A DNA stretch of 64,000 nucleotides from positions 403,310,001 to 403,374,000 of the forward strand of contig OZ024740.1 of NCBI GenBank assembly GCA_964016885.1, in the 5' to 3' direction. Under the pieces are notes generated by a model. That model was not told where the DNA came from. It ran no database searches and worked only from the letters and a program-made list of their open reading frames with translations. The DNA is from Eledone cirrhosa. Taxonomy: Eukaryota. A program made the translations under genes and the position numbers. Shown one piece after another: positions 530 through 58,300 of this stretch; within the stretch, counting starts at the first letter, position 1, and every line of letters begins with the position of its first letter.

Positions 530-1178
530 ATTTTGACCCCCCACTTGTTGACCAGTCACCGTAAGATATACTCGGTTCATTACTACTAACTCTTAAAATG
601 GTCTCACTACAATTCCGTCCCACCTAGTAAACTTTTCTATAGTTTAGCAGTACCAGTGAGAGACTTGATGATTATGGTTAGGGAATAGTAACCAGAAATT
701 GTTTTTTTATATTTTTAACATTCTTGGTATTCTTCTATATATTTACTCCATACTTGACTTACTTATTGTTTCGACTTCCTCCTCCTCCCCCTCCCTAGTA
801 TACTTGCTTGACCTCCTGCCCTGCTGTAGTTGGCACTATCAACGCACGACTGGGTTTCCTCCACTCCCTCTCCCTCTTTCTTCTAATGGCAGGTTCAGCT
901 ACCCTTTCCTTCCACAAATTGCCATGATAGAATTATGTGTCCCAACAACAAACTTTTGACCAATCCTTGAGACAATCACTTTTACCATATATGGAATTAT
1001 CCCCTGAGAAGCTCGGCTATTCATATACCAGGATAAAAATGTTCATTTAGTCCAGAATTAGCCGTCGAAACGGCTTGAGCTCAGCCGTCGGGGTCCTACT
1101 CGTTCCTCTTACCCACTCTACTACTCTAAGTACTTTGGTGCGTTATGGTCCACCTGGTTCCTTACCACATTTCCTTCG

Positions 1179-1180
<2 letters not shown>
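530..1180 (+). mobile_element. PLE-type pseudo-LTR fragment (family X) with degenerate type I hammerhead at ~1001-1093, ending at (TA)n
   Basis: ccc-CTGAGAA-(cggcta...tagccg stem II)-GAAA-cgg...ccg-TC-ggg. The same 3' sequence recurs at 17425-17606 and 57390-57490. The 5' boundary is approximate. Confidence 0.55.
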
Positions 1181-1208
<28 letters not shown>

Positions 1209-1210
<2 letters not shown>

Positions 1211-1809
1211 AAAATCACTGACGAAGGACTATTTTTATCATATGTAACACATGTGCAACCACGCAGTATTCTTCTTTCTTCTCATGTTTTTTATATATAT
1301 TTACCTCGGCTGCGTTTGTCTGTTTCTCTCTTACTGCTTCCCCACTCTCTCTGTTTCTCTCACCTTCTTTCGCACCCTCTGTCAGTTACACTTTCTCTCG
1401 ACTGACCTCTTCCTCACACTTCCACTCACTCACTCTCTGTTTCTCCCCTTCTCACTTCCTCCGTTTGGCTTGTGTGGGTCTCTTCTTGCTCACATCTCAC
1501 ACACATCAACACGGTCTGTACCTCTCTCACTCATGAAATCCACCCGGCTTATGCTGACCGGACAACCATGTTGCTTGTTTATTTTCCTATCTTCGGTTTG
1601 CTTTTATCCTTCTATGTTGTTTACTTGTCCCCCTCGCCTTACGCGAATTCTGGTCCCAATAACTTTTTTTAGTTATTGCTCACACCAACCTGAGGTATCT
1701 GATTTTTAATGCGATAAAATACCAATGATGGTTGGAAAATCACTGACGAAGGACTATTTTTATCATATGTAACCCATGTGCAAACCACGCAGTATTCTTC
1801 TTTCTTCTC

Positions 1810-1815
<6 letters not shown>
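1209..1815 (+). mobile_element. Partial tandem (525-bp period) of the permuted-hammerhead/K-turn repeat family between (TA)n arrays
   Basis: ggaaaatcactgacgaaggact occurs at 1209 and 1734. Homologous to 57530-58300 and, more distantly, to the minus strand of 48035-48976. Confidence 0.8.
1653..1754 (+). ncRNA. Permuted hammerhead-like motif, copy A (G12->A, probably inactive)
   Basis: ggtat-C-tgatttt...gcgat-AAA-atacc-aatgat-ggttgg-aaaatca-CTGACGA-aggac. Confidence 0.6.
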
Positions 1816-1876
<61 letters not shown>

Positions 1877-1881
<5 letters not shown>

Positions 1882-4132
1882 GAAGAGAGAAGAAACATTT
1901 AGATATAATTAGTAATAAAATGTATCATACCTAAACTGTTCCTAAATTCCTCGACTACGTAGTTTCGTGGCATAAACAAAAACAATATATCAAAGATATA
2001 GAGTCCTTGCGAGGTCTGCCGACTTATCAAGAGGATACCTCATTTTACTAGTCTCAAGAACGCGTCTACACGACGTGAGAAAGAATCCCAAAAGGCAGAG
2101 GGGGAGACAGTCACGCGATATAACGGTCGAGAAACAGAGCTAAGCCTCTTATAACCACGAAGAAAATACCACGGAGGCGGAGGGGGTATTCATATCGAGG
2201 CCGTAGAAGAGGTAGTGAAGAAGGCGAGAAGTATGAGTAATGGAAGCTTTCCAGTTGTCCCCACACTTCAAAGATTGCTCGACCAGAGGGAGTTATTAAT
2301 ATATTTAGAAACACACAGATACATGCGGACACACACATATATACATGAATGCATCCGCACCCAACTGTGAGTTAAGGGTGCCAACTTCACCGATGTTGCT
2401 CAATGAATGACTGGGACAGACTAATTCAGTTTGAACCAGACTGAACCAGTATCAGAGTTAAAAATACATTATGAAGAGAGAAGAAACATTTAGATATAAT
2501 TAGTAATAAAATGTATCATACCTAAACTGTTCCTAAATTCCTCGACTACGTAGTTTCGTGGCATAAACAAAAACAATATATCAAAGATATAGAGTCCTTG
2601 CGAGGTCTGCCGACTTATCAAGAGGATACCTCATTTTACTAGTCTCAAGAACGCGTCTACACGACGTGAGAAAGAATCCCAAAAGGCGGAGGGGGAGACA
2701 GTCACGCGATATAACGGTCGAGAAACAGAGCTAAGCCTCTTATAACCACGAAGAAAATACCACGGAGGCGGAGGGGGTATTCATATCGAGGCCGTAGAAG
2801 AGGTAGTGAAGAAGGCGAGAAGTATGAGTAATGGAAGCTTTCCAGTTGTCCCCACACTTCAAAGATTGCTCGACCAGAGGGAGTTATTAATATATTTAGA
2901 AACACACAGATACATGCGGACACACACATATATACATGAATGCATCCGCACCCAACTGTGAGTTAAGGGTGCCAACTTCACCGATGTTGCTCAATGAATG
3001 ACTGGGACAGACTAATTCAGTTTGAACCAGACTGAACCAGTATCAGAGTTAAAAATACATTATGAAGAGAGAAGAAACATTTAGATATAATTAGTAATAA
3101 AATGTATCATACCTAAACTGTTCCTAAATTCCTCGACTACGTAGTTTCGTGGCATAAACAAAAACAATATATCAAAGATATAGAGTCCTTGCGAGGTCTG
3201 CCGACTTATCAAGAGGATACCTCATTTTACTAGTCTCAAGAACGCGTCTACACGACGTGAGAAAGAATCCCAAAAGGCGGAGGGGGAGACAGTCACGCGA
3301 TATAACGGTCGAGAAACAGAGCTAAGCCTCTTATAACCACGAAGAAAATACCACGGAGGCGGAGGGGGTATTCATATCGAGGCCGTAGAAGAGGTAGTGA
3401 AGAAGGCGAGAAGTATGAGTAATGGAAGCTTTCCAGTTGTCCCCACACTTCAAAGATTGCTCGACCAGAGGGAGTTATTAATATATTTAGAAACACACAG
3501 ATACATGCGGACACACACATATATACATGAATGCATCCGCACCCAACTGTGAGTTAAGGGTGCCAACTTCACCGATGTTGCTCAATGAATGACTGGGACA
3601 GACTAATTCAGTTTGAACCAGACTGAACCAGTATCAGAGTTAAAAATACATTATGAAGAGAGAAGAAACATTTAGATATAATTAGTAATAAAATGTATCA
3701 TACCTAAACTGTTCCTAAATTCCTCGACTACGTAGTTTCGTGGCATAAACAAAAACAATATATCAAAGATATAGAGTCCTTGCGAGGTCTGCCGACTTAT
3801 CAAGAGGATACCTCATTTTACTAGTCTCAAGAACGCGTCTACACGACGTGAGAAAGAATCCCAAAAGGCGGAGGGGGAGACAGTCACGCGATATAACGGT
3901 CGAGAAACAGAGCTAAGCCTCTTATAACCACGAAGAAAATACCACGGAGGCGGAGGGGGTATTCATATCGAGGCCGTAGAAGAGGTAGTGAAGAAGGCGA
4001 GAAGTATGAGTAATGGAAGCTTTCCAGTTGTCCCCACACTTCAAAGATTGCTCGACCAGAGGGAGTTATTAATATATTTAGAAACACACAGATACATGCG
4101 GACACACACATATATACATGAATGCATCCGCA
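1877..4132 (-). repeat. 3.8 near-identical tandem copies of a 591-bp unit, each with a type I hammerhead (retrozyme/pLTR concatemer)
   Basis: Unit starts at 1878, 2469, 3060 and 3651; flanked by (TA)n on both sides; only one substitution noticed between units. Confidence 0.95.
1948..2035 (-). ncRNA. Type I hammerhead ribozyme, U3-A8 core variant (also 2539-2626, 3130-3217, 3721-3808)
   Basis: Minus strand: tcctc-TTGATAA-gtcggca...tgccac-GAAA-ctacgtag-TC-gagga. 5-bp stem I, palindromic stem III, GUC cleavage triplet. Confidence 0.85.
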
Positions 4133-4185
4133 TATATATATATAGATAAATATACACCGGTGTATATGATTGTGTATAGAAGATT

Positions 4186-4464
4186 ATATTAATAAGAGGA
4201 ATTCTAACTTTGTCTGATTTACTCGTTTTATTTACAATCCTTTAAAATTTATAATGGTATTATAATGAATAATTGCATTTGAAAATTGCAAACTTGACTG
4301 TCACCACACATTATGAACCTGAAGATTGCGAAAGCATGAAAGTACTTGTTCAATTAACACTTAACATTTAATATTCTATCATACTATTTCATTATAATAC
4401 CATTATAAATTTTAAAGGATTGTAAATAAAACGAGTAAATCAGACAAAGTTGGAATTCCTCTTA

Positions 4465-4470
<6 letters not shown>
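4186..4470 (+). mobile_element. Fold-back PLE-type terminus: ~83-bp inverted arms (4186-4268 / 4388-4470) enclosing a minimal hammerhead
   Basis: The arms are reverse complements; the element ends in (TA)n. Confidence 0.8.
4314..4352 (+). ncRNA. Minimal type I hammerhead ribozyme
   Basis: tgaac-CTGAAGA-t-tgc-gaaa-gca-t-GAAA-gtac-TT-gttca. Confidence 0.85.
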
Positions 4471-4523
<53 letters not shown>

Positions 4524-8080: not shown

Positions 8081-8514
8081 CTGCATATACACATGTACAG
8101 ATACATAGCGTATACACATGCACACATACAACTCAAAGCATACACATCCACACATACAATAACATCCATACCTACACACATGCATGCAGACATGCAGACA
8201 TATCTAGCTAGGTGATGTTATCTAAATTCCAATTAGAAAGTCTTGTAACTATGTTAGAATCCGACTAACTCTATTGGTAAAAATTTGTGAAATTATAAAA
8301 CCAGAAGAAAATACTTACATACATAAAAAGTATAACTGAAATGGATTTGCAGCTTCCTAATTCATAGACTACAAATGGCCGCGATATCTGACACCATCAA
8401 AATTTGTAAAACATTCTTGCAATTGAAGGGATAACAATTTCTTTTCTTTTACAACATTGTCACCAGGTCAAAATGTACTCGAAATTAAGAAAAAGAGAGG
8501 CATACATACATACA

Positions 8515-9092
8515 TGGTGGCTGCCAACTCGTTTTCGAGTACGGCCACTACTTTATATCCATGTAGGAGAACCCCTACCGATGCGCTGAACGAGTGTGAC
8601 ATTTTAGTCCAGCCAGCGACTTGAAAACTCTGGTACAAACACTACAGATGTGACAATTATTGACACATAGTGCTGGGCCCATGGTACCATGTGACGACAA
8701 GTGCAGAGAGATCTCCAGATATAAAGCAATGCCTGTGCCGTGAAGCTTTTATAATGAGCAAAGGCACTGCACAAAGCCAGTCCCACTCTCTTAACCAAGA
8801 TGATATTTACCAAAAAGAAGAACAATTCAAAATCATTGGATACCATCAGGGTTGCAGGTGTTATATCAGAGTTTTCCTTCTCCTAGAATTCTGACTTGAC
8901 AAAGGCTAAGGGGTCATCTCTGCCGGTGATTTTGGATGGCAATTGACTCTTAAGAGCTCCTTTGCCCTTTGACAGGTTTTGTTTTTAGTCCTGAAGGATG
9001 TCCAAAGTCACCCTCCTCACCAAGAAACCTTGGTGGGGTTGCCAGTTTAGTCGCCAACGACCCGACCATGGGACAGGTTGTACTGGGATACA
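8515..9092 (-). mobile_element. ~580-bp non-autonomous retroelement (probably RTE-derived) embedded in (TACA)n, copy 1
   Basis: Three highly similar copies (8515-9092, 9200-9778, 34745-35312). The motif ggagaaggaaaactctga resembles RTE 5' regions, from memory. Confidence 0.7.
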
Positions 9093-9199
9093 TGTTACAT
9101 ACATACATACGTACATACATACATACATACATACATACATACATACATACATACATACATACATACATACATACATACATACATACATACATACATAAA

Positions 9200-9778
9200 T
9201 GGTGGCTGCCAACTCGTTTTCGAGTACGGCCACTACTTTATATCCATGTAGGAGAACCCCTACCGATGCGCTGAACAAGTGTGACTTTTTAGTCCAGCCA
9301 GCGACTTAAAAACTCTGGTACAAACACTACACTTGTGACAATTATTGACACATAGTGCTGGGCCCATGGTACCATGTGGTGACAAGTGCAGAGAGATCTC
9401 CAGATACAAAGCAATGCCTGTGCCGTGAAGCTTTTATAGTGAGCAAAGGCACTGCACAAAGCCAGTCCCACTCTCTTAACCAAGATGATATTTACCATAA
9501 AGAAGAACAAATCGACATCATTGGATACCATCAGGGTCGCAGGTGTTTTTCAGAGTTTTCCTTCTCCTAGAATTATGCCTTGACAAAGGCTAAGGGGTCA
9601 TCTCTCCCGGTGATTTTGGATGGCCATTGACTCTTAAGGGTTCCTTTGCCCTTTGACAGGTTTTGTTTTTAGCCCTGCAGGATGTCCAAAGTCACCCTCC
9701 TCACCAAGAAACCTTGGTGCGGTTGCCAGTTTAGTCGCCAACGACCCGACCATGGGACAGGTTGTACTGGGATAGATG
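9200..9778 (-). mobile_element. Same element, copy 2
   Basis: Direct repeat of 8515-9092, separated from it by (TACA)n. Confidence 0.7.
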
Positions 9779-9939
9779 TTACCAGTAGCACCAACTGGTG
9801 ACCTGATATATAAATACATACATGCATACATATAAATATATACATACATATATAAATACGTAGTACTCTTTCCTCTCTCATTCTTACCGTCTACATTTTT
9901 ATCATACAACTTGGTTATTTCATTACGCATGCGCGCGTT

Positions 9940-17346: not shown

Positions 17347-17411
17347 ATAGCGTAAAAGTTTTGTATATGCAAAAATATTCTCGGTAACCATATATAGTAG
17401 ATTCATACATA
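17183..17411. repeat. ~70-bp inverted arms flanking a (TG)n tract
   Basis: tgaatctactatatatggttacc...tacgctattata / tataatagcgta...ggtaaccatatatagtagattca. Confidence 0.85.
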
Positions 17412-17424
17412 TATATATATATAT

Positions 17425-17603
17425 CAAAGAGGATGTGGTAAGATACCAGGCAAACCATAACGCACCAGATTACTCAATACTTATGGTAGTAGAGTAGATA
17501 ATAGGAAAAGAGTCAGGACCCTGACGGCTGAGCTCCGGCCGTTTCGACAGCTAGATCTAGCTGTCGAAACTGGGAGCTCAGCCGTCGGGGTCCTGACTCT
17601 TTT

Positions 17604-18821: not shown

Positions 18822-20017
<1,196 letters not shown>

Positions 20018-41008: not shown

Positions 41009-42747
41009 AACTGTAGTATGTTTATAAGGAATACAACTGTAGTATATCTATAAGGAATACAACTGTAGTATATCTATAAGGAATACAACTGTAGTATATC
41101 TATAAGGAATACAACTGTAGTATGTTTATAAGGAATACAACTGTAGTATGTTTATAAGGAATACAACTGTAGTATATCTATAAGGAATACAACTGTAGTA
41201 TATCTATAAGGAATACAACTGTAGTATATCTATAAGGAATACAACTGTAGTATGTTTATAAGGAATACAACTGTAGTATATCTATAAGGAATACAACTGT
41301 AGTATGTTTATAAGGAATACAACTGTAGTATATCTATAAGGAATACAACTGTAGTATGTTTATAAGGAATACAACTGTAGTATATCTATAAGGAATGCAA
41401 CTGTAGTATGTTTATAAGGAATACAACTGTAGTATGTTTATAAGGAATACAACTGTAGTATATCTATAAGGAATACAACTGTAGTATATCTATAAGGAAT
41501 ACAACTGTAGTATGTTTATAAGGAATACAACTGTAGTATATTTATAAGGAATACAACTGTAGTATATCTATAAGGAATACAACTGTAGTATATCTATAAG
41601 GAATACAACTGTAGTATGTTTATAAGGAATACAACTGTAGTATATCTATAAGGAATACAACTGTAGTATGTTTATAAGGAATACAACTGTAGTATATCTA
41701 TAAGGAATACAACTGTAGTATATCTATAAGGAATACAACTGTAGTATATCTATAAGGAATACAACTGTAGTATGTTTATAAGGAATACAACTGTAGTATA
41801 TCTATAAGGAATACAACTGTAGTATATCTATAAGGAATACAACTGTAGTATATCTATAAGGAATACAACTGTAGTATGTTTATAAGGAATACAACTGTAG
41901 TATATCTATAAGGAATACAACTGTAGTATGTTTATAAGGAATACAACTGTAGTATGTTTATAAGGAATACAACTGTAGTATATCTATAAGGAATACAACT
42001 GTAGTATATCTATAAGGAATACAACTGTAGTATGTTTATAAGGAATACAACTGTAGTATATCTATAAGGAATACAACTGTAGTATATCTATAAGGAATAC
42101 AACTGTAGTATATCTATAAGGAATACAACTATAGTATATCTATAAGGAATACAACTGTAGTATATCTATAAGGAATACAACTGTAGTATACCTATAAGGA
42201 ATACAACTGTAGTATGTTTATAAGGAATACAACTGTAGTATATCTATAAGGAATACAACTGTAGTATATCTATAAGGAATACAACTGTAGTATGTTTATA
42301 AGGAATACAACTGTAGTATATCTATAAGGAATACAACTGTAGTATATCTATAAGGAATACAACTGTAGTATATCTATAAGGAATACAACTGTAGTATGTT
42401 TATAAGGAATACAACTGTAGTATATCTATAAGGAATACAACTGTAGTATATCTATAAGGAATACAACTGTAGTATATCTATAAGGAATACAACTGTAGTA
42501 TGTTTATAAGGAATACAACTGTAGTATATCTATAAGGAATACAACTGTAGTATATCTATAAGGAATACAACTGTAGTATGTTTATAAGGAATACAACTGT
42601 AGTATATCTATAAGGAATACAACTGTAGTATGTTTATAAGGAATACAACTTTAATAGGAATACAACTGTAGTATGTTTATAAGGAATACAACTGTAGTAT
42701 GTTTATAAGGAATACAACTGTAGTATGTTTATAAGGAATACAACTGT
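41009..42747. repeat. 26-bp minisatellite, ~66 copies, two interspersed variants
   Basis: ggaatacaactgtagtat[atc|gtt]tataa. Confidence 0.95.
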
Positions 42748-43639: not shown

Positions 43640-43980
43640 CGCATGAGATGGCTAAACACGTGGAACAACGATTTTGCATCAAATTTTGCCAAAGGACTTA
43701 AAAATCTGAAGCAGAAAAAACTTATGAAATTCAGCAAGCTTTTGGGTGATAATGCCATGGATGTTACTCAAATAAAAGAAATGCACAACAGATTCAAAGA
43801 TGGCCGTACATCAACGGTAAGTGACCAACGTTCTGGGATGCCATTACGAGCCGCAATTCAGTTGTTAACCAAAAAGTGCGGACCCTCATAATCGAGGATT
43901 GTCGTTTGACGGTCTGAGAAATCTGCGACGTGGTTGGGATCAGTAAAAGTTATGCACATGCAATTTTAAAAGAAGCTTTT
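43640..43980 (+). pseudogene. Mariner transposase N-terminal (HTH) fragment
   Basis: EQRFCIKFCQ..GDNAM..TQIKE.HNRFKDGRTS..SDQRSG..VRTLIIEDCRLTV.EI..VGISK, read across frameshifts. Confidence 0.8.
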
Positions 43981-44768
43981 CAGTGCATGGAATCCAGTCC
44001 CCGCTAGCTGTTCCATCTACCGAATTATTATTATTTTTATATGAGTCCCCAGTGTCCGCGCATTGCCTGGAGACTTAGCTGAGAATAGACTCCCTTATGA
44101 CGCAATGAATTCTCGACAGTTAGATTACGTAACTGTCTTTATCCCATTGCAGAAACTAATTAGTTGGAGTGAAAATTTTAGTAACTAAGTTAAATTTTTT
44201 AATTTTTTAAAATTTCTTATTTTACGTCTTTTATATTATTGTTCTGCATCCTCCTGCATTGAACCACCTAGGTACTATGACATAACCTGTGTATTTGCTA
44301 GCATTAGCGTACATCTGTACGCATATGTTAGTAGATATACTAAATTCTCTATATTTATCTCCAAATTACTTATTTGTCGAGCAAACCTGCCAAAACCACT
44401 ACTAATTTATTGGGGTGATAGTAGGCTTCTGTCATCTTACCATCCCACTCCTACCGACTAGCCTCAGTGTTACGTGATTGATTCTTTAGAATCTGCCATT
44501 TGACCAGTGACAGCGAGCTTTTCAGTGCATGGAATCCAGTCCCCGCTAGCTGTTCCATCTACCGAATTATTATTATTTTTATATGAGTCCCCAGTGTCCG
44601 CGCATTGCCTGGAGACTTAGCTGAGAATAGACTCCCTGATGACGCAATGAATTCTCGACAGTTAGATTACGTAACTGTCTTTATCCCATTGCAGAAACTA
44701 ATTAGTTGGAGTGAAAATTTTAGTAAGTAAGTTAATTTTTTTAATTTTTTAAAATTTCTTATTTTACG

Positions 44769-44775
<7 letters not shown>
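43975..44775 (+). mobile_element. 1.5-unit tandem (542-bp period) HHR element ending at (TA)n
   Basis: 43975-44235 is repeated at 44517-44775; each copy has a hammerhead. Confidence 0.9.
44631..44712 (+). ncRNA. Type I hammerhead ribozyme (intact); upstream copy 44089-44170 has CUUAUGA
   Basis: actcc-CTGATGA-c-gcaatg...cattgc-a-GAAA-ctaattag-TT-ggagt. Confidence 0.9.
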
Positions 44776-44845
<70 letters not shown>

Positions 44846-45459
44846 TTTTATGTTATGTTTCATAACAATAACAATAGCAGGAGAGTGAGAAATAGTAATA
44901 ATGGTAATAATATTAACGATAGACAGAACAACAACAACAACCACAATAATAATAATAATAGAAACATTAACTACAGACACAGCAGCAGCGACCACAGTAG
45001 TAATAACGGTAACAATACGAATAACAACAACAACCACAGTGGTAATAATAGTAATAGAAATAATACATGTAGCAACATTAATGATAGAGACAACAAAAAC
45101 AAGAAACATAATGTAACAACCACAATGGCAGAAATAACAGTAACAACAACAATAACGGTGAAGAAAACAACAACAATACATCTAACAATCACAGCAACAA
45201 TACATCTAGCAATCATAACAACAATACATCTAACAATACATCTAGCAATCATAAAAATAATAATAATGCTAATGAGAGGAACAACATCAACTACCATAAT
45301 AACAATAATAGCAACACACACAACTACCCACAGATAAGTCTGGTAGGATGTCAATAGACAGCATGCCGAACTACATCAAGCTATGCAACCCACATCACTA
45401 ACACGAGCGAAATTGCACAGCAAATACATGATGGGAAAGAGAAAATCCTCAACGCTCAC

Positions 45460-47371
45460 ATGATGATGTGGACCGACATCCTAAAGCCAAGCAGACGCAC
45501 TACCAACAACTTCCAGGCGTCTAACAATGGCATACCACCCTTGTATGGGCTCCGCAAAGACCACAAGACAGTCGACGACCCGACAACAGGACCACCAACA
45601 AGACCCGTATGCAGAGCAAATATAGCTAGCAACTACAGGATCTCCTACTTCCTCTCAATGGTTATACGCTCCATAATCAAGATGTCCCCAGATGTATGTG
45701 ACAGTACAGAGGACCTCCTCAGCAGAATCAGTGAGTGCAACAAAAACAGGAACCTATCCAACTGCATAATCGGCAGTATGGATGTGGTATCACTGTACCC
45801 ATCCATTAACATTGATTTGGCTGTGGAAAAATGTGTGGAGATGATCATTGAGAGTGAGGTGGAGTTCTGCGACGTCGACACAGATGAACTGGGCCTCCTA
45901 CTTAGACTTACCTACGACACTGACTACCTAGACAGCCATGACCTTAGACGTTTCTACCCCAGTAGACCCATAAGAGGTAGACCCCCCACCATAACCTCAA
46001 TGGCTAAAAAGACTCCCATGGGAAGGTGGATTGGGTGGATCAAAGCTATACGGACCCCCCAAAACAATGATCAGGTAAGAAAAATGGTCGCACATGCAAT
46101 AGGGGCTAGTATCAAAACTACCCTAAAGGGCCACATATTCAAGTTCAACGAGAAGATCTACACCCAAAATGAGGGAGCAGCCATTGGCGTCAGCATAGCT
46201 GGTGACGTTGTCAACCTTTTCATGGTATGGTGGGAAAGGAGTCTTAAAGATCTCCTTAATGAGAGCTCCATAGACCTTATCATGTACTCTCGTTACGTAG
46301 ATGATATCAATATAGTTATAAGAACATCCCCACACGAGAGCACTAACAAGTTTGATTTAGAACGTAGCACAAGGGAAAGCATCCAGAGTATAACTGTAAC
46401 TATCGACTACCCTTCCAAACACCCTAACAATAGACTACCTGTGTTAGAGACGGGACTTTGGATTAATACTATAGACGAGAGAGCCCAAATTCTCCACTCA
46501 CACTATGCTAAACCCATGGCCTCCAAATACCTGATACTCAAAAACTCAGCAATGTCCAGTAGTGCTAAGTTTAATATTCTGATCGCAGACTTGGTACGAA
46601 TGATGAAGAACGTGTCCCACATGTGCGACCTAACAGAAATGGAAAGACACATCCAACACTTCATCAACCGCATGCAGTTCTCTGGCTACAACCAAAGAGA
46701 CAGAATCAGAATATACGAAGGAGCCACGGAGAAGTATAAGACCCTCATAGAACTGGACATGAAAGGAATTTGCCCATTATACAGGAGCAAATCATGGAAT
46801 AGCTTAGATAGGACTAGACATAAGATAGGGAAAGCCACCTCATCGTACGCAACCAGAGATACCAGAGTGTCATGTTTGTGGACGCTACCCCTGGAGGGAA
46901 ATTAGCTAACCAGTGTAGAAAGGCCCTGAGAAAGACCCACTTAAAGATTAAGGTGGTAGAAAAGCCAGGAACCACCATAAAATCCCTGATCAGCAAAACC
47001 TACCCTTTTAAGAAAACCCACTGTACTAATAGTAAATTTATCATATGTAAAGTAAACCCCCGGATAAACTGTAAAACTAGAAACGTAGTCTATAGCATAA
47101 GATGTACAGAGGGTACTTGCAGAAACATGACAACAACATACATAGGCGAGACAGCTCGTAGCATAGGTGAAAGGATAAACCAACACTGGGGGAACTAAAA
47201 GGACGAAAAAACGGTTCAGTACTATACGAACATGCCAGACAACAACACGACGGTAACATAGACAACATAGAAATTAGAATAATATCTAAAGATAGAAATG
47301 ACCCAGCAGATAGGCAAATCAGAGAGGCCAGTGAAATAGAACTTAGAAGGCCAAAGCTAAACAAAAAATGA
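45460..47371 (+). pseudogene. Penelope-like element ORF: reverse transcriptase + C-terminal GIY-YIG endonuclease, frameshifted
   Basis: PPLYGLRKDHK, PTRPVC, MDVVSLYPSI, FKFNEKIYTQNEGAAIG, RYVDD; then FVDATPGG, Cys-rich linker, VVYSIRC...YIGETARSIGERINQH. Confidence 0.9.
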
Positions 47372-47700
47372 ATGGAATAACAACAACACCCAAACAAACA
47401 ACACTGACCTAAGAGAAGTATAAATAAATAAATAAATAAATAGATAAATAAATAAATACATGCGGAAGCACAATAACAACAAACACATATAAACACACAC
47501 TAATAAAGATAGAATACATTAACCAATACACAGTCAACCAATCACGAACACACATCAAACAAAACATTATACACACACGCAAACGCATGCGCAAAGAAGA
47601 CAAAAAATAAAATAAAATAAAAATAAACAAATAAATAAATATATAAACAGACTAAATAAAGATGGCGTAGAAAATACAATGCAACGGGAGGAAACAATAG

Positions 47701-47745
47701 CACCACTGACGATGTTGCAGATGTGCAACGAAAGAATTTTGATAA
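47701..47745 (+). ncRNA. Decayed minimal hammerhead in the PLE 3' pseudo-LTR
   Basis: CTGACGA-t-gttgca-gatg-tgcaac-GAAA-gaattt; stem I poorly preserved. Confidence 0.6.
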
Positions 47746-47942
47746 ACTATATATATGTGTTTGTATCTATATTGTATCTGTATTTTTGACCGTTGGTCAG
47801 TCAATGGCAACATTGAGGACCGAATAAATTAAATTAACTGATATAAAAGACACAGAAGCGAAAAGCGAAAACCAACCAAACAGTGTGTTCTGTTATTAAT
47901 TGTGGCAATATTACACAAATATGACCCTCCCCAAGTATAACA

Positions 47943-48034
<92 letters not shown>

Positions 48035-48037
<3 letters not shown>

Positions 48038-48976
48038 GAAAAAGTGAGTCCTTCATCAGTGACCCTCCAACCGTCCTCGGCATTTCATCGCTTTAAGGGC
48101 CATATGCCTCAGGTTGGTGCGAACAACGGCTAAAAAAAGTCGTTGGGACACGTAAATAAAGGGGGACGCTAGAGTAACAACAAAAGGGTTTAAGCAACGG
48201 AAAGTGAGTAGAAATAGACAAGTCCCAGATCTCTATGAATATAAACTCTGTGAAATCGTGAACAAGAGACGAAAGACCATCGAACCTGGTAGAAATGTGA
48301 GCAAGGAAAGAATTTCGCCCAAGTTTGACGGGGGGGAAAAAGAGAGAGAGAGAGAAAGAAAAAGGAGAGAAGAGGAAGAAGAAGAAGAAGAAGAAGAAGA
48401 GGATAAGGTGGTCTGGTCTACGAATTCGGTAAACGCAAGTTTTGTGAAGTCGCAGACGAAAGAGAGAGAGAAAAAAATTTCATACCAGCTCGGTCAAGAC
48501 TGCGCGAGAAAAGAATTACACACAGGTCAAACTTGAAGGAGGAGGAGGAAAGAGGAGGAGGAGAGGTAGTGACAGAGAATGAGGGAGTGAAAGTTGAGGA
48601 GAGGGTAACAGAGAGGGAGACGGCTAGAAGTGGTAAAGATACAAGGAACGAAACAGACAGGCAGCATGGAAAAGTAATATGTGTAAATATGATGATAATA
48701 ATGGAGCTGCGGCGTTGCAAATGGGATACATATGAAAAAGTGAGTCCTTCATCAGTGACCCTCCAACCGTCCTCGGCATTTCATCGCTTTAAGGGCCATA
48801 TGCCTCAGGTTGGTGCGAACAACGGCTAAAAAAAGTCGTTGGGACACGTAAATAAAGGGGGACGCTAGAGTAACAACAAAAGGGTTTAAGCAACGGAAAG
48901 TGAGTAGAAATAGACAAGTCCCAGATCTCTATGAATATAAACTCTGTGAAATCGTGAACAAGAGACGAAAGACCAT
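48035..48976 (-). mobile_element. 1.35-unit tandem (696-bp period) of the permuted-hammerhead family, subfamily 2, next to (TA)n
   Basis: 48035-48280 appears identical to 48731-48976. Confidence 0.9.
48048..48149 (-). ncRNA. Permuted hammerhead/K-turn motif, copy D (core intact); copy E at 48744-48845
   Basis: Minus strand: gtcc-caacgac(t7)agccgttg-ttcgca-ccaacc-tga-ggcat-A-tggccct-taaagcgat-GAA-atgcc-gaggac-ggttgg-agggtca-CTGATGA-aggac. Confidence 0.7.
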
Positions 48977-49145: not shown

Positions 49146-49393
49146 ATAATAGTGAAAGAGTGAAGAATAACATGGTCGGTTGTACAAAAAGGGTTTTATT
49201 TACAGTATTAACAATTGTTTCATTGATCAGGTGAGTATAAAGGCCGCTGATGTGTCTCTGATCAAATCATCGAATTCCGATGATTTGATCAGACACATCA
49301 GCGGCCTTTATACTCACCTGATCAATGAAACAATTGTTAATACTGTAAATAAAACCCTTTTTGTACAACCGACCATGTTATTCTTCACTCTTT

Positions 49394-49400
<7 letters not shown>
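49146..49400. mobile_element. 255-bp palindrome folding back at the 5' edge of a hammerhead (49274-49341)
   Basis: att-CCGATGA-t-ttgatcag...ctgatcaa-t-GAAA-caattg-TT-aat; centre ~49274; (TA)n on the right. Confidence 0.85.
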
Positions 49401-49492
<92 letters not shown>

Positions 49493-52842: not shown

Positions 52843-53243
52843 TTAATTAGGTTTATAGTATTTAAATGTTTTTCGTATACGGTGATTACAAACTATAATC
52901 AGTTCCTGTCTTGTATTCAATAAATCGTCCTTAGATTTAGTAATTTCCAAGATCTTCCCTGAACATAACCTGCATTCTCTCCTGTTCCCAAGATATGGAG
53001 TTCTTTGTAGAATGATGTTCCACGATAGCTTGAAATCTATTTTTTTCTTTTTATGGTTATTTACTGCTTCAGCTAAAGATGTGATGTTAGCTAGTTTAGT
53101 ATTGTTAAAGATACTGGAGTGTGCGTAATATCTTTTCTTAAATGTATTCGATGTAGATCCCATATATGTTTTGTTGGAGTCAGTAGTAGACACAGTGCAT
53201 TTATATATTACATTATTAATCAAACAGTTGCCATTTAATGGGC

Positions 53244-55769: not shown

Positions 55770-55852
<83 letters not shown>

Positions 55853-55855
<3 letters not shown>

Positions 55856-56959
55856 TATGCATGTATGTATACGTACATACATATATGTATACACACGTAC
55901 AGTAGTATGTATATATATACATACATGCACACATATATATATGCACGTATCGGTTTACCGAACATTTATTATAATGCTCGGTTTGTTTGTTTGTAAACAA
56001 ACAAACAGCCCTAATTACGCCGTACAGTGTTTAGGCAACCACGTCACCTTTTTTTTTTTTTTTGTTCAACACTGGCACAGGAACGATTTACTAGTTTCAA
56101 GCTTATTAGCTATCGTCAGCATCGCATACCTACCTGCCAGATGGTTGAATGTCTGAAAGTATATACTTTCCTTATGCATATTAACGGCTAATCAGCCTAA
56201 TTTGCATATCGAGTGAGTTCAGTCGGCCGGGCACACCGAAAACAATAAATGGAATAGAATGAAACGAAATTTCATTTCTCACTCTTAGTACGGCACTTAC
56301 TTAAATGTAAGTATGCATGTATGTATACGTTCATACATATATGTATACAGACGTACAGTAGTATGTATATATATACATACATGCACACATATATATATGC
56401 ACGTATCGGTTTACCGAACATTTATTATAATGCTAGGTTTGTTTGTTTGTAAACAAACAAACAGCCCGAATTACGCCGTACAGTGTTTAGGCAACCACGT
56501 CACCTTTTTGTTCAACACTGACACAGGAATGATGTACTAGTTTCAAGCTTATTAGCTATCGTCAGCATCGTATACCTTCCTGCCAGATGGTTGAACGTCT
56601 GAAAGTATATACTTTCCTTATGCATATTAACGGCTAATCAGCCTAATTTGCATATCGAGTGAGTTCAGTCGGCCGGGCACACCGAAAACGATAAATGGAA
56701 TAGAATAAAACGAAATTTCATTTCTCGCTCTTAGTACGGCACTTACTTAAAGGTAAGTATGCATGTATGTATACGTACATACATATATGTATACAGTCGT
56801 ACAGTAGTATGTATATATATATACATACATGCACACATATATATATGCACGTATCGGTTTACCGAACATTTAATATAATGCTCGGTTTGTTTGTTTGTAA
56901 ATTTAAATAAGTGCTGTACTAAGAGTGAGAAATGAAATGTCGTTCCATTCTATTCCATT

Positions 56960-57117: not shown

Positions 57118-57238
57118 CGTGTGTGTGTGTGTGCGTGCGTGTGTGTGTGTGTGTGTGTAAGAATATTTTCGAAACAGCGAGTGGATTTGAAATTATTAGA
57201 AATGTAAGCTATCGCCGTATTTTGACTAAAGAAATTAA

Positions 57239-57380
57239 AGAAATTATTTAGCCTGATAGTGGGGTTATGAACCCTCGGAGAAATGGAAAAAGATGAGTAT
57301 TGACGTACATGTACGTCAATACTCATCTTTTTCCATTTCTCCGAGGGTTCTTAACCCCACTATCAGGCTAAATAATTTCT
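57239..57380. repeat. 142-bp near-perfect palindrome ending at TA repeats
   Basis: Centre acgtaca|tgtacgt at 57309/57310. Confidence 0.9.
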
Positions 57381-57493
57381 ATATATATAAAACGAAGGAA
57401 GTGTGGTAAGGAACCAGATGGACCATAACACACCAGAGTACTCGAAACGGCTTGAGCTCCGCCGTCCGTCAGGGACTTGAACATTTTCCTATA

Positions 57494-57524
<31 letters not shown>

Positions 57525-57529
57525 TTTTC

Positions 57530-58300
57530 CTTTCTTCGGTTTGCTTTTATCCTTGTATGTTGTTTACTTGTCTTACTCGCTTTACGCGACTCACTTGTCT
57601 CAATAGCTTTTTTTAGTTATTGCTCGCACCAACCTGAGGTATATGATTTTTAATGCGATGAAATACCAAGGATGGTTGGCAAATCACTGTCGAGGGACTA
57701 ATTTTATAATTTGTAACCCATGTGCAACCACGCAGTATTCCTCTTTCTGCTCATGTTTTTTATACATATTTACCTCGGCTGCGTTTGTCTGTTTCTCTCT
57801 TTCTCTCTTACTGCTCCGCGTTCTCTCTGTTTCTCTCACCTTCTTTCGCCCCCTCTGTCAGTTACACTTTCTCTCGACTGACCTCTTCCTCGCACTTCCA
57901 CTCACTCACTCTCTGTTTCTCCCCTTCTCACTTCCTTCCGTTTCGTTGGTAGTGGGGTTCTTTCTTTCTTTCTCACATCTCACTCACGTCGGACGGTCTG
58001 TATTCTGAACGCTCATGAAATTCACCCAGCTTATGCTGACCAGATAACCATGTTGCTTGTTTTTTTTCCTATCTTCGGTTTGCTTTTATCCTTCTATGTT
58101 GTTTACTTGTCTCACTCGCTTTATGCGACTCACTTGTCCCAATAGCTTTTTTTAGTTATTGCTCGCACCAACCTGAGGTATATGATTTTTAATGCGATGA
58201 AATACCAATGATGGTTGGCAAATCACTGACGAGGGACTAATTTTATAATATGTAACCCATGTGCAACCACGCAGTATTCCTCTTTCTTCTCATGTTTTTT
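57530..58300 (+). mobile_element. 1.4-unit tandem (539-bp period) of the permuted-hammerhead family, subfamily 1
   Basis: 57530-57760 is repeated at 58070-58300; motif copy B at 57597-57698 (CUGUCGA) and copy C at 58136-58237 (intact). Confidence 0.9.
58136..58237 (+). ncRNA. Permuted hammerhead/K-turn motif, copy C (core intact)
   Basis: gtcc-caatagc(t7)agttattg-ctcgca-ccaacc-tga-ggtat-A-tgattt-ttaatgcgat-GAA-atacc-aatgat-ggttgg-c-aaatca-CTGACGA-gggac. Confidence 0.7.

Follow-up and report, generated by a model that had tools for sequence, protein, structure and literature searches.

A non-coding repeat of Penelope-like architecture with a predicted SGC hammerhead core in Eledone cirrhosa, apparently copied in trans from RNA spanning the predicted cut

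Main

We describe a non-coding repeat family of Eledone cirrhosa that has the architecture of a Penelope-like element (PLE) and a predicted self-cleaving hammerhead core of type SGC. Its copies appear to be made in trans from RNA that spans the predicted cut, most likely a re-ligated circle, and we put the probability of this reading as a whole at about one half. Three copies (A, B and C; Table 1) lie in the window, by which we mean the whole stretch of 64,000 nucleotides that was analysed (contig OZ024740.1), and the searches beyond it covered the 3.0-Gb genome.

The three copies belong to one family, have a body that is CT-rich in the RNA sense, and each adjoins (TA)n. A preliminary description had reported insertions with periods of 696, 539 and about 525 bp, flanked by (TA)n and lacking a credible open reading frame, and repeat alignment and the sequence itself bore this out. 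At these periods, 246 of 246 duplicated bases are identical in copy B and 223 of 232 in copy C (57530-58300), and copy A has 95.9% identity over 97 nt with one indel (BLAST). None of the six stop-to-stop frames across the three copies gave a Pfam match at cut-off. The copies begin at different phases of the unit, as had been noted: counted from the upstream unit's predicted cut, copy B starts at -177, copy A at about +35 and copy C at about -113 to -125, the last being blurred by a T run that places its start at 57518-57530. Their 3′ ends lie +64 to +68, +116 and +118 after the predicted cut.

Table 1. Positions of the repeat copies, their predicted ribozyme folds and the neighbouring PLE in the window
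Feature	Position	Strand	Details
Copy A, 1.16 units of the 525-bp unit	1209..1815	+	ends at site 2
Copy A, ribozyme fold	1653..1754	+	predicted cut 1699/1700; G12 -> A at 1716
PLE, 5′-truncated and frameshifted copy of a young autonomous element	45358..47942	+	RT, CX4CxxC linker, C-terminal GIY-YIG
(TA)n target of copy B	47943..48037	.	common to the 3′ end of the opposite-strand PLE
Copy B, 1.35 units of the 696-bp non-coding unit	48035..48976	- (RNA sense)	ends at site 1
Copy B, 3′ end at site 1	48035..48040	-	..UUUUCAUA merging into the TA run
Copy B, type-SGC hammerhead-like fold, 3′ unit	48048..48149	-	core intact; GUCC 48149; block S 48108-48097; predicted cut between 48103 and 48102; G12 at 48086; CUGAUGA 48059-48053
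Copy B, presumed kink-turn signature in stem III of the 3′ fold	48072..48112	-	sequence and covarying flanking helices
Copy B, 5′ fold	48744..48845	-	predicted cut between 48799 and 48798; core intact
Copy C, ~1.44 units of the 539-bp unit	57518..58300	+	ends at site 2
Copy C, 5′ ribozyme fold	57597..57698	+	A6 is U (CUGUCGA)
Copy C, 3′ ribozyme fold	58136..58237	+	predicted cut 58182/58183; core intact

Results

A predicted hammerhead with scrambled strand order

Each unit carries the hammerhead strands in the order S (GGYAU-H, the cut, stem I), G (GAAA-URCC) and C (stem I, CUGAYGA). Judged by its sequence, this S-G-C order marks a type-SGC, non-circularly permuted hammerhead, the form in which the permuted hammerhead that had been proposed for the family finds support, and we predict that it self-cleaves after H17. 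Over 17 subfamily variants, 91.7% of 372 cells of the fold are paired, compared with 29-45% in slid controls, and 19 of 22 pairs change compensatorily, among them 6/6 in stem I and 4/5 in stem III. No shuffle attained the fold score, in a test that is inflated by the relatedness of the variants; the evidence for the fold depends mainly on the slid control and on the variety of pair types. H17 was A in 117 and C in 29 of the 146 in-register cases among 196 unfiltered instances, and never G, and U16.1-A15.1 was present in all 17 variants. Invariance of the G and C blocks is no evidence, because the search patterns demanded both. Thermodynamic stability was unremarkable (z -0.55 to -2.17, in a nested model only). 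Two of the five ribozyme folds in the window have a core change, and these are predicted to be inactive: that of copy A through G12A and the 5′ fold of copy C through A6U.

A search of Rfam with 48035-48976 at E up to 10 returned no hammerhead and four weak non-ribozyme matches, and in a scan of the whole window microsatellite and miRNA noise dominated among the 150 of 304 matches listed. Twister, HDV-like and type I-III hammerhead folds were tried by eye on both strands and none fitted; a simple type I scan of the window gave only four short AT-rich matches. We also considered pattern matches in viral contigs (at least 120) as relatives and rejected them all as chance, with at most 10 of 15 pairs among the matches listed. 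Older, diverged non-coding subfamilies (loci L321-L332 and L301-L320) retain the SGC fold with different stems; some of them have no junction hairpin, and one has U for the kink-turn G2n.

Stem II of a single pair, a four-way junction and a kink-turn signature

A contiguous multi-pair stem II was absent between blocks C and G, where we found a single pair, 10.1-11.1. It was formed in 13 of 17 variants, as A-U, U-A, G-C/C-G or wobble depending on the subfamily. Beyond it, one upstream strand binds positions 11.2-11.5 (91% paired) and a second one binds positions 10.2-10.5 (GUCC/GGAC, AUCC/GGAU or UUCC/GGAA), so that the strands leaving stem II pair with separate upstream strands around a hairpin and give a four-way junction. 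Stem III of copy B sets CUGA (48112-48109) opposite a 3-nt bulge, GAG, followed by GA-CG (48078-48072), which we take, by the k-turn consensus, to be a kink-turn signature. The kink-turn continues into a covarying helix, CCAAC/GUUGG, whose end leads to stem I, and five of six pairs in the helix flanking the kink-turn are compensatory. The GA after the 3-nt bulge, which was part of the search patterns, and A1n were present in 17/17 variants, and G2n in 15/17.

Copies end at two fixed sites

The ribozyme-core pattern matched 10,264 times genome-wide and 0 times in the control, and a pattern requiring an intact S block matched 5,605 times and once, respectively. Because full-unit queries favour copies of at least one unit, arms were sampled by position instead, at 97 consecutive loci in the first 68 Mb of one chromosome, the last 34 of which were drawn from the list requiring an intact S block. 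We scored 117 arms in 95 of the 97 loci, the other two having no scored arm; arms shorter than about 50-100 nt are absent from the sample because the G and C blocks were required. Unit lengths in the family range from 514 to 830 bp, and copies are mostly dispersed and shorter than one unit: 68 arms measured <0.95 unit, 15 measured 0.95-1.05, 28 measured 1.05-2 and six were of at least 2 units, with up to 9 (one array was scored as five units in this survey, one more than its actual four). The family had been said always to occur as one-and-a-fraction units, a rule drawn because only three copies were in view; 28 of 117 sampled arms span 1.05-2 units, and the rule does not hold.

The 3′ ends of 111 of the 117 arms fall on either of two sites separated by about 50 nt, site 1 at approximately +61 to +66 and site 2 at approximately +102 to +124 nt past the predicted cut (about 64 and 110), with one subfamily shifted to +82 to +98 and +126 to +135. 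Both end sites are a UA-rich stretch merging into the TA run, and 5′ ends are scattered across the unit. The copies in the window also stop at the two fixed sites, so that random phase at both ends was not borne out. The earlier description of the insertions as circularly permuted thus applies to their 5′ ends and fails at their 3′ ends, and fixed termini, which had been named as an observation that would speak against it, occur at the 3′ end and not at the variable 5′ ends; insertion phase varies because the 5′ ends alone vary. Sixteen loci have two head-to-head arms, with one arm per site in 15 of them (p 2.6e-4 vs 50:50). We considered shared 5′ starts as parent-offspring pairs and rejected this, the starts being hot spots independent of unit number. 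The repeats of subfamily B differ at 21 of 4,524 compared bases; this subfamily is young.

The insertion layout is Penelope-like, with a partial tandem, an inverted 5′-truncated arm, a one-sided tail and a (TA)n target, the layout that the available part of Craig et al. 2021 (PMC8557442) gives for PLEs. Partial tandems, head-to-head arms, the one-sided tail and the (TA)n target all support the earlier proposal of reverse transcription in trans by a PLE. Terminal redundancy might instead have arisen once a monomer had inserted, by slippage or duplication of the local DNA, and arrays do display turnover at the DNA level. The flank, however, is never duplicated, ends always fall at the two sites of the element, and redundant copies grade smoothly into copies shorter than one unit; for single copies of one unit and a fraction, the fixed 3′ ends largely refute slippage, and we regard it as very improbable.

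Traces at the predicted cut

Among the matches listed, 99 copies (of 1,423 genome-wide) were disrupted just upstream of block G, 19 of them by indels and 80 by 5′ junctions. Of these junctions, 8 lie at -19 to -8, 19 at -7 to +4 and 53 at +5 to +16, again among the matches listed; over the same bins and within the same matches listed, inverted junctions number 2, 7 and 10, and non-microsatellite junctions follow the same trend with 4, 11 and 20. Among the matches listed, 5′ ends did not peak at the cut itself, the excess being spread over +5 to +16, and TA/AT microhomology partly explains it. Cleaved RNAs would be expected to produce such a step, to which microhomology or stalling at the fold could contribute.

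These traces bear on whether the fold cuts at all. It might be a recognition structure bound by protein that carries hammerhead letters and does not cut in vivo, the two priming sites being sufficient for insertion. A one-pair stem II would suit such a structure, as would the fact that about nine in ten arms read through the 3′-most cut site, and the available part of Frangieh et al. 2024 (PMC11167929) reports that Poseidon insertion in vitro was not blocked by hammerhead mutants. Against it stand the junction step at the cut, the absence of G at H17 in 146 instances, and the retention of U16.1-A15.1 and 10.1-11.1 in old diverged subfamilies, where block S was unspecified by the pattern. We consider a non-cutting structure unlikely.

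The template apparently spans the predicted cut

Because priming lies 3′ of the ribozyme and most arms read through, the main template was continuous at the cut, either uncut or re-ligated; this supports the earlier claim that the template runs uninterrupted through the ribozyme cut and can be longer than one unit. Repeats within one insertion were closer to each other than to repeats of other insertions in 37 of 41 cases (1.8% vs 3.1%). In 48 multi-unit arms we found 79 variants common to both repeats, 30 private variants and seven position-specific recurrences, two of which stem from one duplicated locus. Of the 23 multi-ribozyme arms, 19 extend well beyond the upstream cut. Closeness within insertions, shared variants and these long arms would favour one template copied twice.

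A less likely alternative is that the template is a linear read-through tandem transcript with an uncut 3′ ribozyme and that DNA-homogenised arrays serve as masters, with no circle. Second-round stops cluster at about +31 to +65 of the upstream unit for either priming site (13 of 46, in a range chosen post hoc), which a linear dimer with its upstream ribozyme folded would explain better than another round on a circle would. In three dimers the start lies no more than 6 nt from the upstream cut, which a sealed circle does not produce, and in long arrays both the variants and the unit lengths alternate, so that these arrays did not all come from a single circle. A multi-copy uncut RNA is also proposed for Poseidon in the available part of PMC11167929, and the available part of Eckert et al. 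2023 (PMC10085705) describes published SGC ribozymes as slow. With a linear tandem, however, lengths can only shrink unless arrays renew them, and most copies are shorter than one unit; inherited position-specific differences between 5′ and 3′ repeats are almost never seen; and one array of 9 units, with five private variants, has clean junctions and an overhang of only 19 nt. Tentatively, we place a circular template somewhat ahead of a linear tandem RNA.

The reverse transcriptase might also mimic a circle by jumping from the 5′ end of a cut monomer, either back to that monomer's own 3′ end or to the 3′ end of a different one. Such jumps could account for the step in junction density at the cut and for 10 of 19 small indels at -8 to +2 (both among the matches listed), for the dimers that start at the cut and for one unit that is chimeric between subfamilies. 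But most internal cut sites are letter-perfect, and the indel excess is weak and located in GG/TATA runs. We consider template jumping improbable.

On the preferred reading of a re-ligated circle copied in trans, read-through transcripts with two ribozymes would be cut to monomers, part of which would then be ligated. A PLE enzyme would nick (TA)n and start cDNA inside the RNA at either UA-rich site, roughly 64 or 110 nt downstream of the cut, a mechanism suggested by the observed end pattern. Priming by both target strands, one site each, would give head-to-head arms and a one-sided tail. Copying halts at variable points, as the 5′ ends show, usually with TA-microhomology joins, and yields 0.1 to several units; the one-and-a-fraction copies are those that went just beyond one round. 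Cut linear RNAs would account for the surplus of short copies starting just 3′ of the cut.

A candidate helper and a possible ancestor

The PLE at 45358 is of Neptune/Nematis type as judged by its CX4CxxC linker alone. A genome search for it gave 21,375 candidates, of which 144 were scored, many with the same score and with open frames of about 1,200 aa. The family (loci L337-L350) is extremely young and abundant, with 4.1-kb tandem units, and an intact 1217-aa open reading frame that contains an Asn-rich insert. It inserts in (TA)n with two 3′ ends about 46-58 nt apart, and all seven scorable inverted pairs in 14 hand-picked regions have one end each; this matching end geometry further supports the claim of mobilisation in trans by a PLE. 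The PLE and the repeat unit share no sequence. From geometry and age, this young C-terminal-endonuclease PLE is likely to be the present helper. The 3′ end of the autonomous PLE has a candidate CUGACGA-hairpin-GAAA core (47706-47733, +) that is conserved in all young copies compared. A second fragment that had been named as a possible source of the enzyme, at 52843, is a 5′-truncated GIY-YIG-like end only (Pfam E 0.12).

The repeat's fold may have come from elsewhere. In the available part of PMC8557442, the 3′ ends of the octopus elements Naiad_Ovul and Naiad_Obim have, by eye, the same fold, kink-turn and hairpin loop, with about 120 nt from cut to end and no 10.1-11.1 pair, and Naiad_Esco has the S-G-C order and no kink-turn; among the other entries available there, the fold was not seen by eye in Naiad_Omin, Adux, Skow-1, Naiad_Mmer or the entry before Naiad_Mmer. 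The repeat's fold likely descends from a Naiad 3′ end. A search of the assembly with three back-translated Naiad motifs, exact patterns that miss decayed or divergent Naiads, gave 0, 0 and 2 matches; both matches were broken, with no ribozyme nearby and no sequence in common with the repeat unit. Judging by these matches, Naiads look dead in the E. cirrhosa assembly. A Naiad-type-core pattern found 12 old non-coding copies, none of which has a PLE open reading frame within 1.5 kb upstream.

The motif of Naiad_Mmer type resembles, by eye, a twister core. It is a different conserved motif, shared by the 3′ ends of Naiad_Mmer and the entry preceding it in the available part of the PMC8557442 supplement. 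As far as these entries go, ribozymes of two or more classes may have been overlooked in Naiads.

Other elements in the window

A further element that targets (TA)n and in which a type I hammerhead was read by eye (CUGAGAA, a long stem II and GAAAC-GGC..GCC-GUC) lies at 1002-1190 (+), with pieces at 17405-17553 (-) and 57380-57470 (-), and its end flanks several SGC-family copies at other loci (L004, L044, L058 and L260). Positions 1873-4523 hold a 591-bp tandem array of about 3.8 units with 99.6-99.9% identity, a TA run at its start and an inverted piece after it, possibly another non-autonomous PLE-type unit. Partial tandems ending in microsatellites occur at 43974-44778 (period 542), 55852-56901 (446) and 8501-9862 (~685); the one with the 542-bp period has CUGAUGA followed by hairpins, with no GAAA. 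Short near-perfect fold-back inserts between TA runs (49146-49402, 57236-57383 and 19399-19710) are likely head-to-head remnants of other PLE families. A 26-bp minisatellite of about 63 copies (95%) occupies 41009-42747.

Discussion

This repeat places non-circularly permuted hammerheads, so far published from anonymous soil RNAs, in an animal genome, where they take a new form that combines a stem II of one pair with a four-way junction and a kink-turn and exists in many natural variants. The repeat also suggests a reason for the earlier scoring of Naiads as hammerhead-less, and it suggests that retrozyme surveys confined to types I-III overlook whole families. A 0.6-kb non-coding unit and an intact young candidate helper in one genome make a small test system, one that bears on whether the partial tandems of PLEs originate in circles, in uncut multimers or in template jumps, and on whether priming by both strands gives rise to the tail.

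A longer account, speculative and as a whole rather unlikely in our view, would make the repeat a Naiad-derived retrozyme: a kink-turn-braced SGC hammerhead that cuts and re-seals circles of 0.5-0.8 kb, that outlived its parent and that is now rolled into (TA)n by a reverse transcriptase of another PLE clade, both strands priming at two sites, with the kink-turn acting as a switch operated by an L7Ae-family protein. If true, natural hammerheads with a kink-turn would have their first example here, and so would SGC ribozymes with a life cycle in a host genome.

Among known systems, the closest in core are the published SGC ribozymes. According to the available part of Eckert et al. 2023 (PMC10085705), these ribozymes (HRIMA-1 and variants) come from soil metatranscriptomes, their cleavage was validated, and none was found in the genomes of known organisms; our literature search, limited to open-access papers, found no other report of the SGC form. 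As far as that paper is available, HRIMA-1 and the repeat share the S-G-C order, CUGANGA, GAAA, a UH site, stems I and III as pseudoknots and a short connection between stem I and the stem II side. Stem II is contiguous over 5-6 bp in the published SGC ribozymes, whereas in the repeat it is one pair that opens into a four-way junction; bracing is by a helix 3′ of block G in the former, and by strands 5′ of block S together with the kink-turn helix in the latter. The repeat has a kink-turn in stem III, and the published forms have none in the available text and supplement ('kink' gave 0 matches). The settings also differ, in that the repeat's SGC sits in an animal retroelement with >10,000 copies and is known here from sequence, whereas the published ones are cleavage-validated.

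Animal non-LTR retrozymes resemble the repeat in having non-coding head-to-tail units with one hammerhead each, a range from monomers to multimers, and a proposed PLE origin or mobilisation; an origin of retrozymes from PLEs is argued in the available part of Li et al. (bioRxiv 10.64898/2026.07.22.740005). They have type I hammerheads, units of about 300 bp and circular RNAs, the last demonstrated in the available part of Cervera and de la Pena 2020 (PMC7229834), whereas the repeat has the SGC form and units of 514-830 bp and is described at the DNA level only. Searches for type I would miss the family because its order is SGC.

The PLEs that carry an endonuclease, Naiad and Poseidon, match the repeat, as far as the sources are available, in their partial tandems, inverted 5′-truncated arm, one-end tail, (TA)n target and two internal starts. 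In the available part of PMC11167929, two internal start sites bound the tail of Poseidon PAc in vitro, and uncut RNA was the main substrate of this one PLE assayed in vitro. The repeat differs in having no open reading frame and in its tail of about 40-55 nt, compared with 30-40 in PLEs. Naiads were reported in the available part of PMC8557442 as lacking canonical hammerheads, with an HHR_half_core for Naiad_Ovul, the element whose 3′ end has the fold described here.
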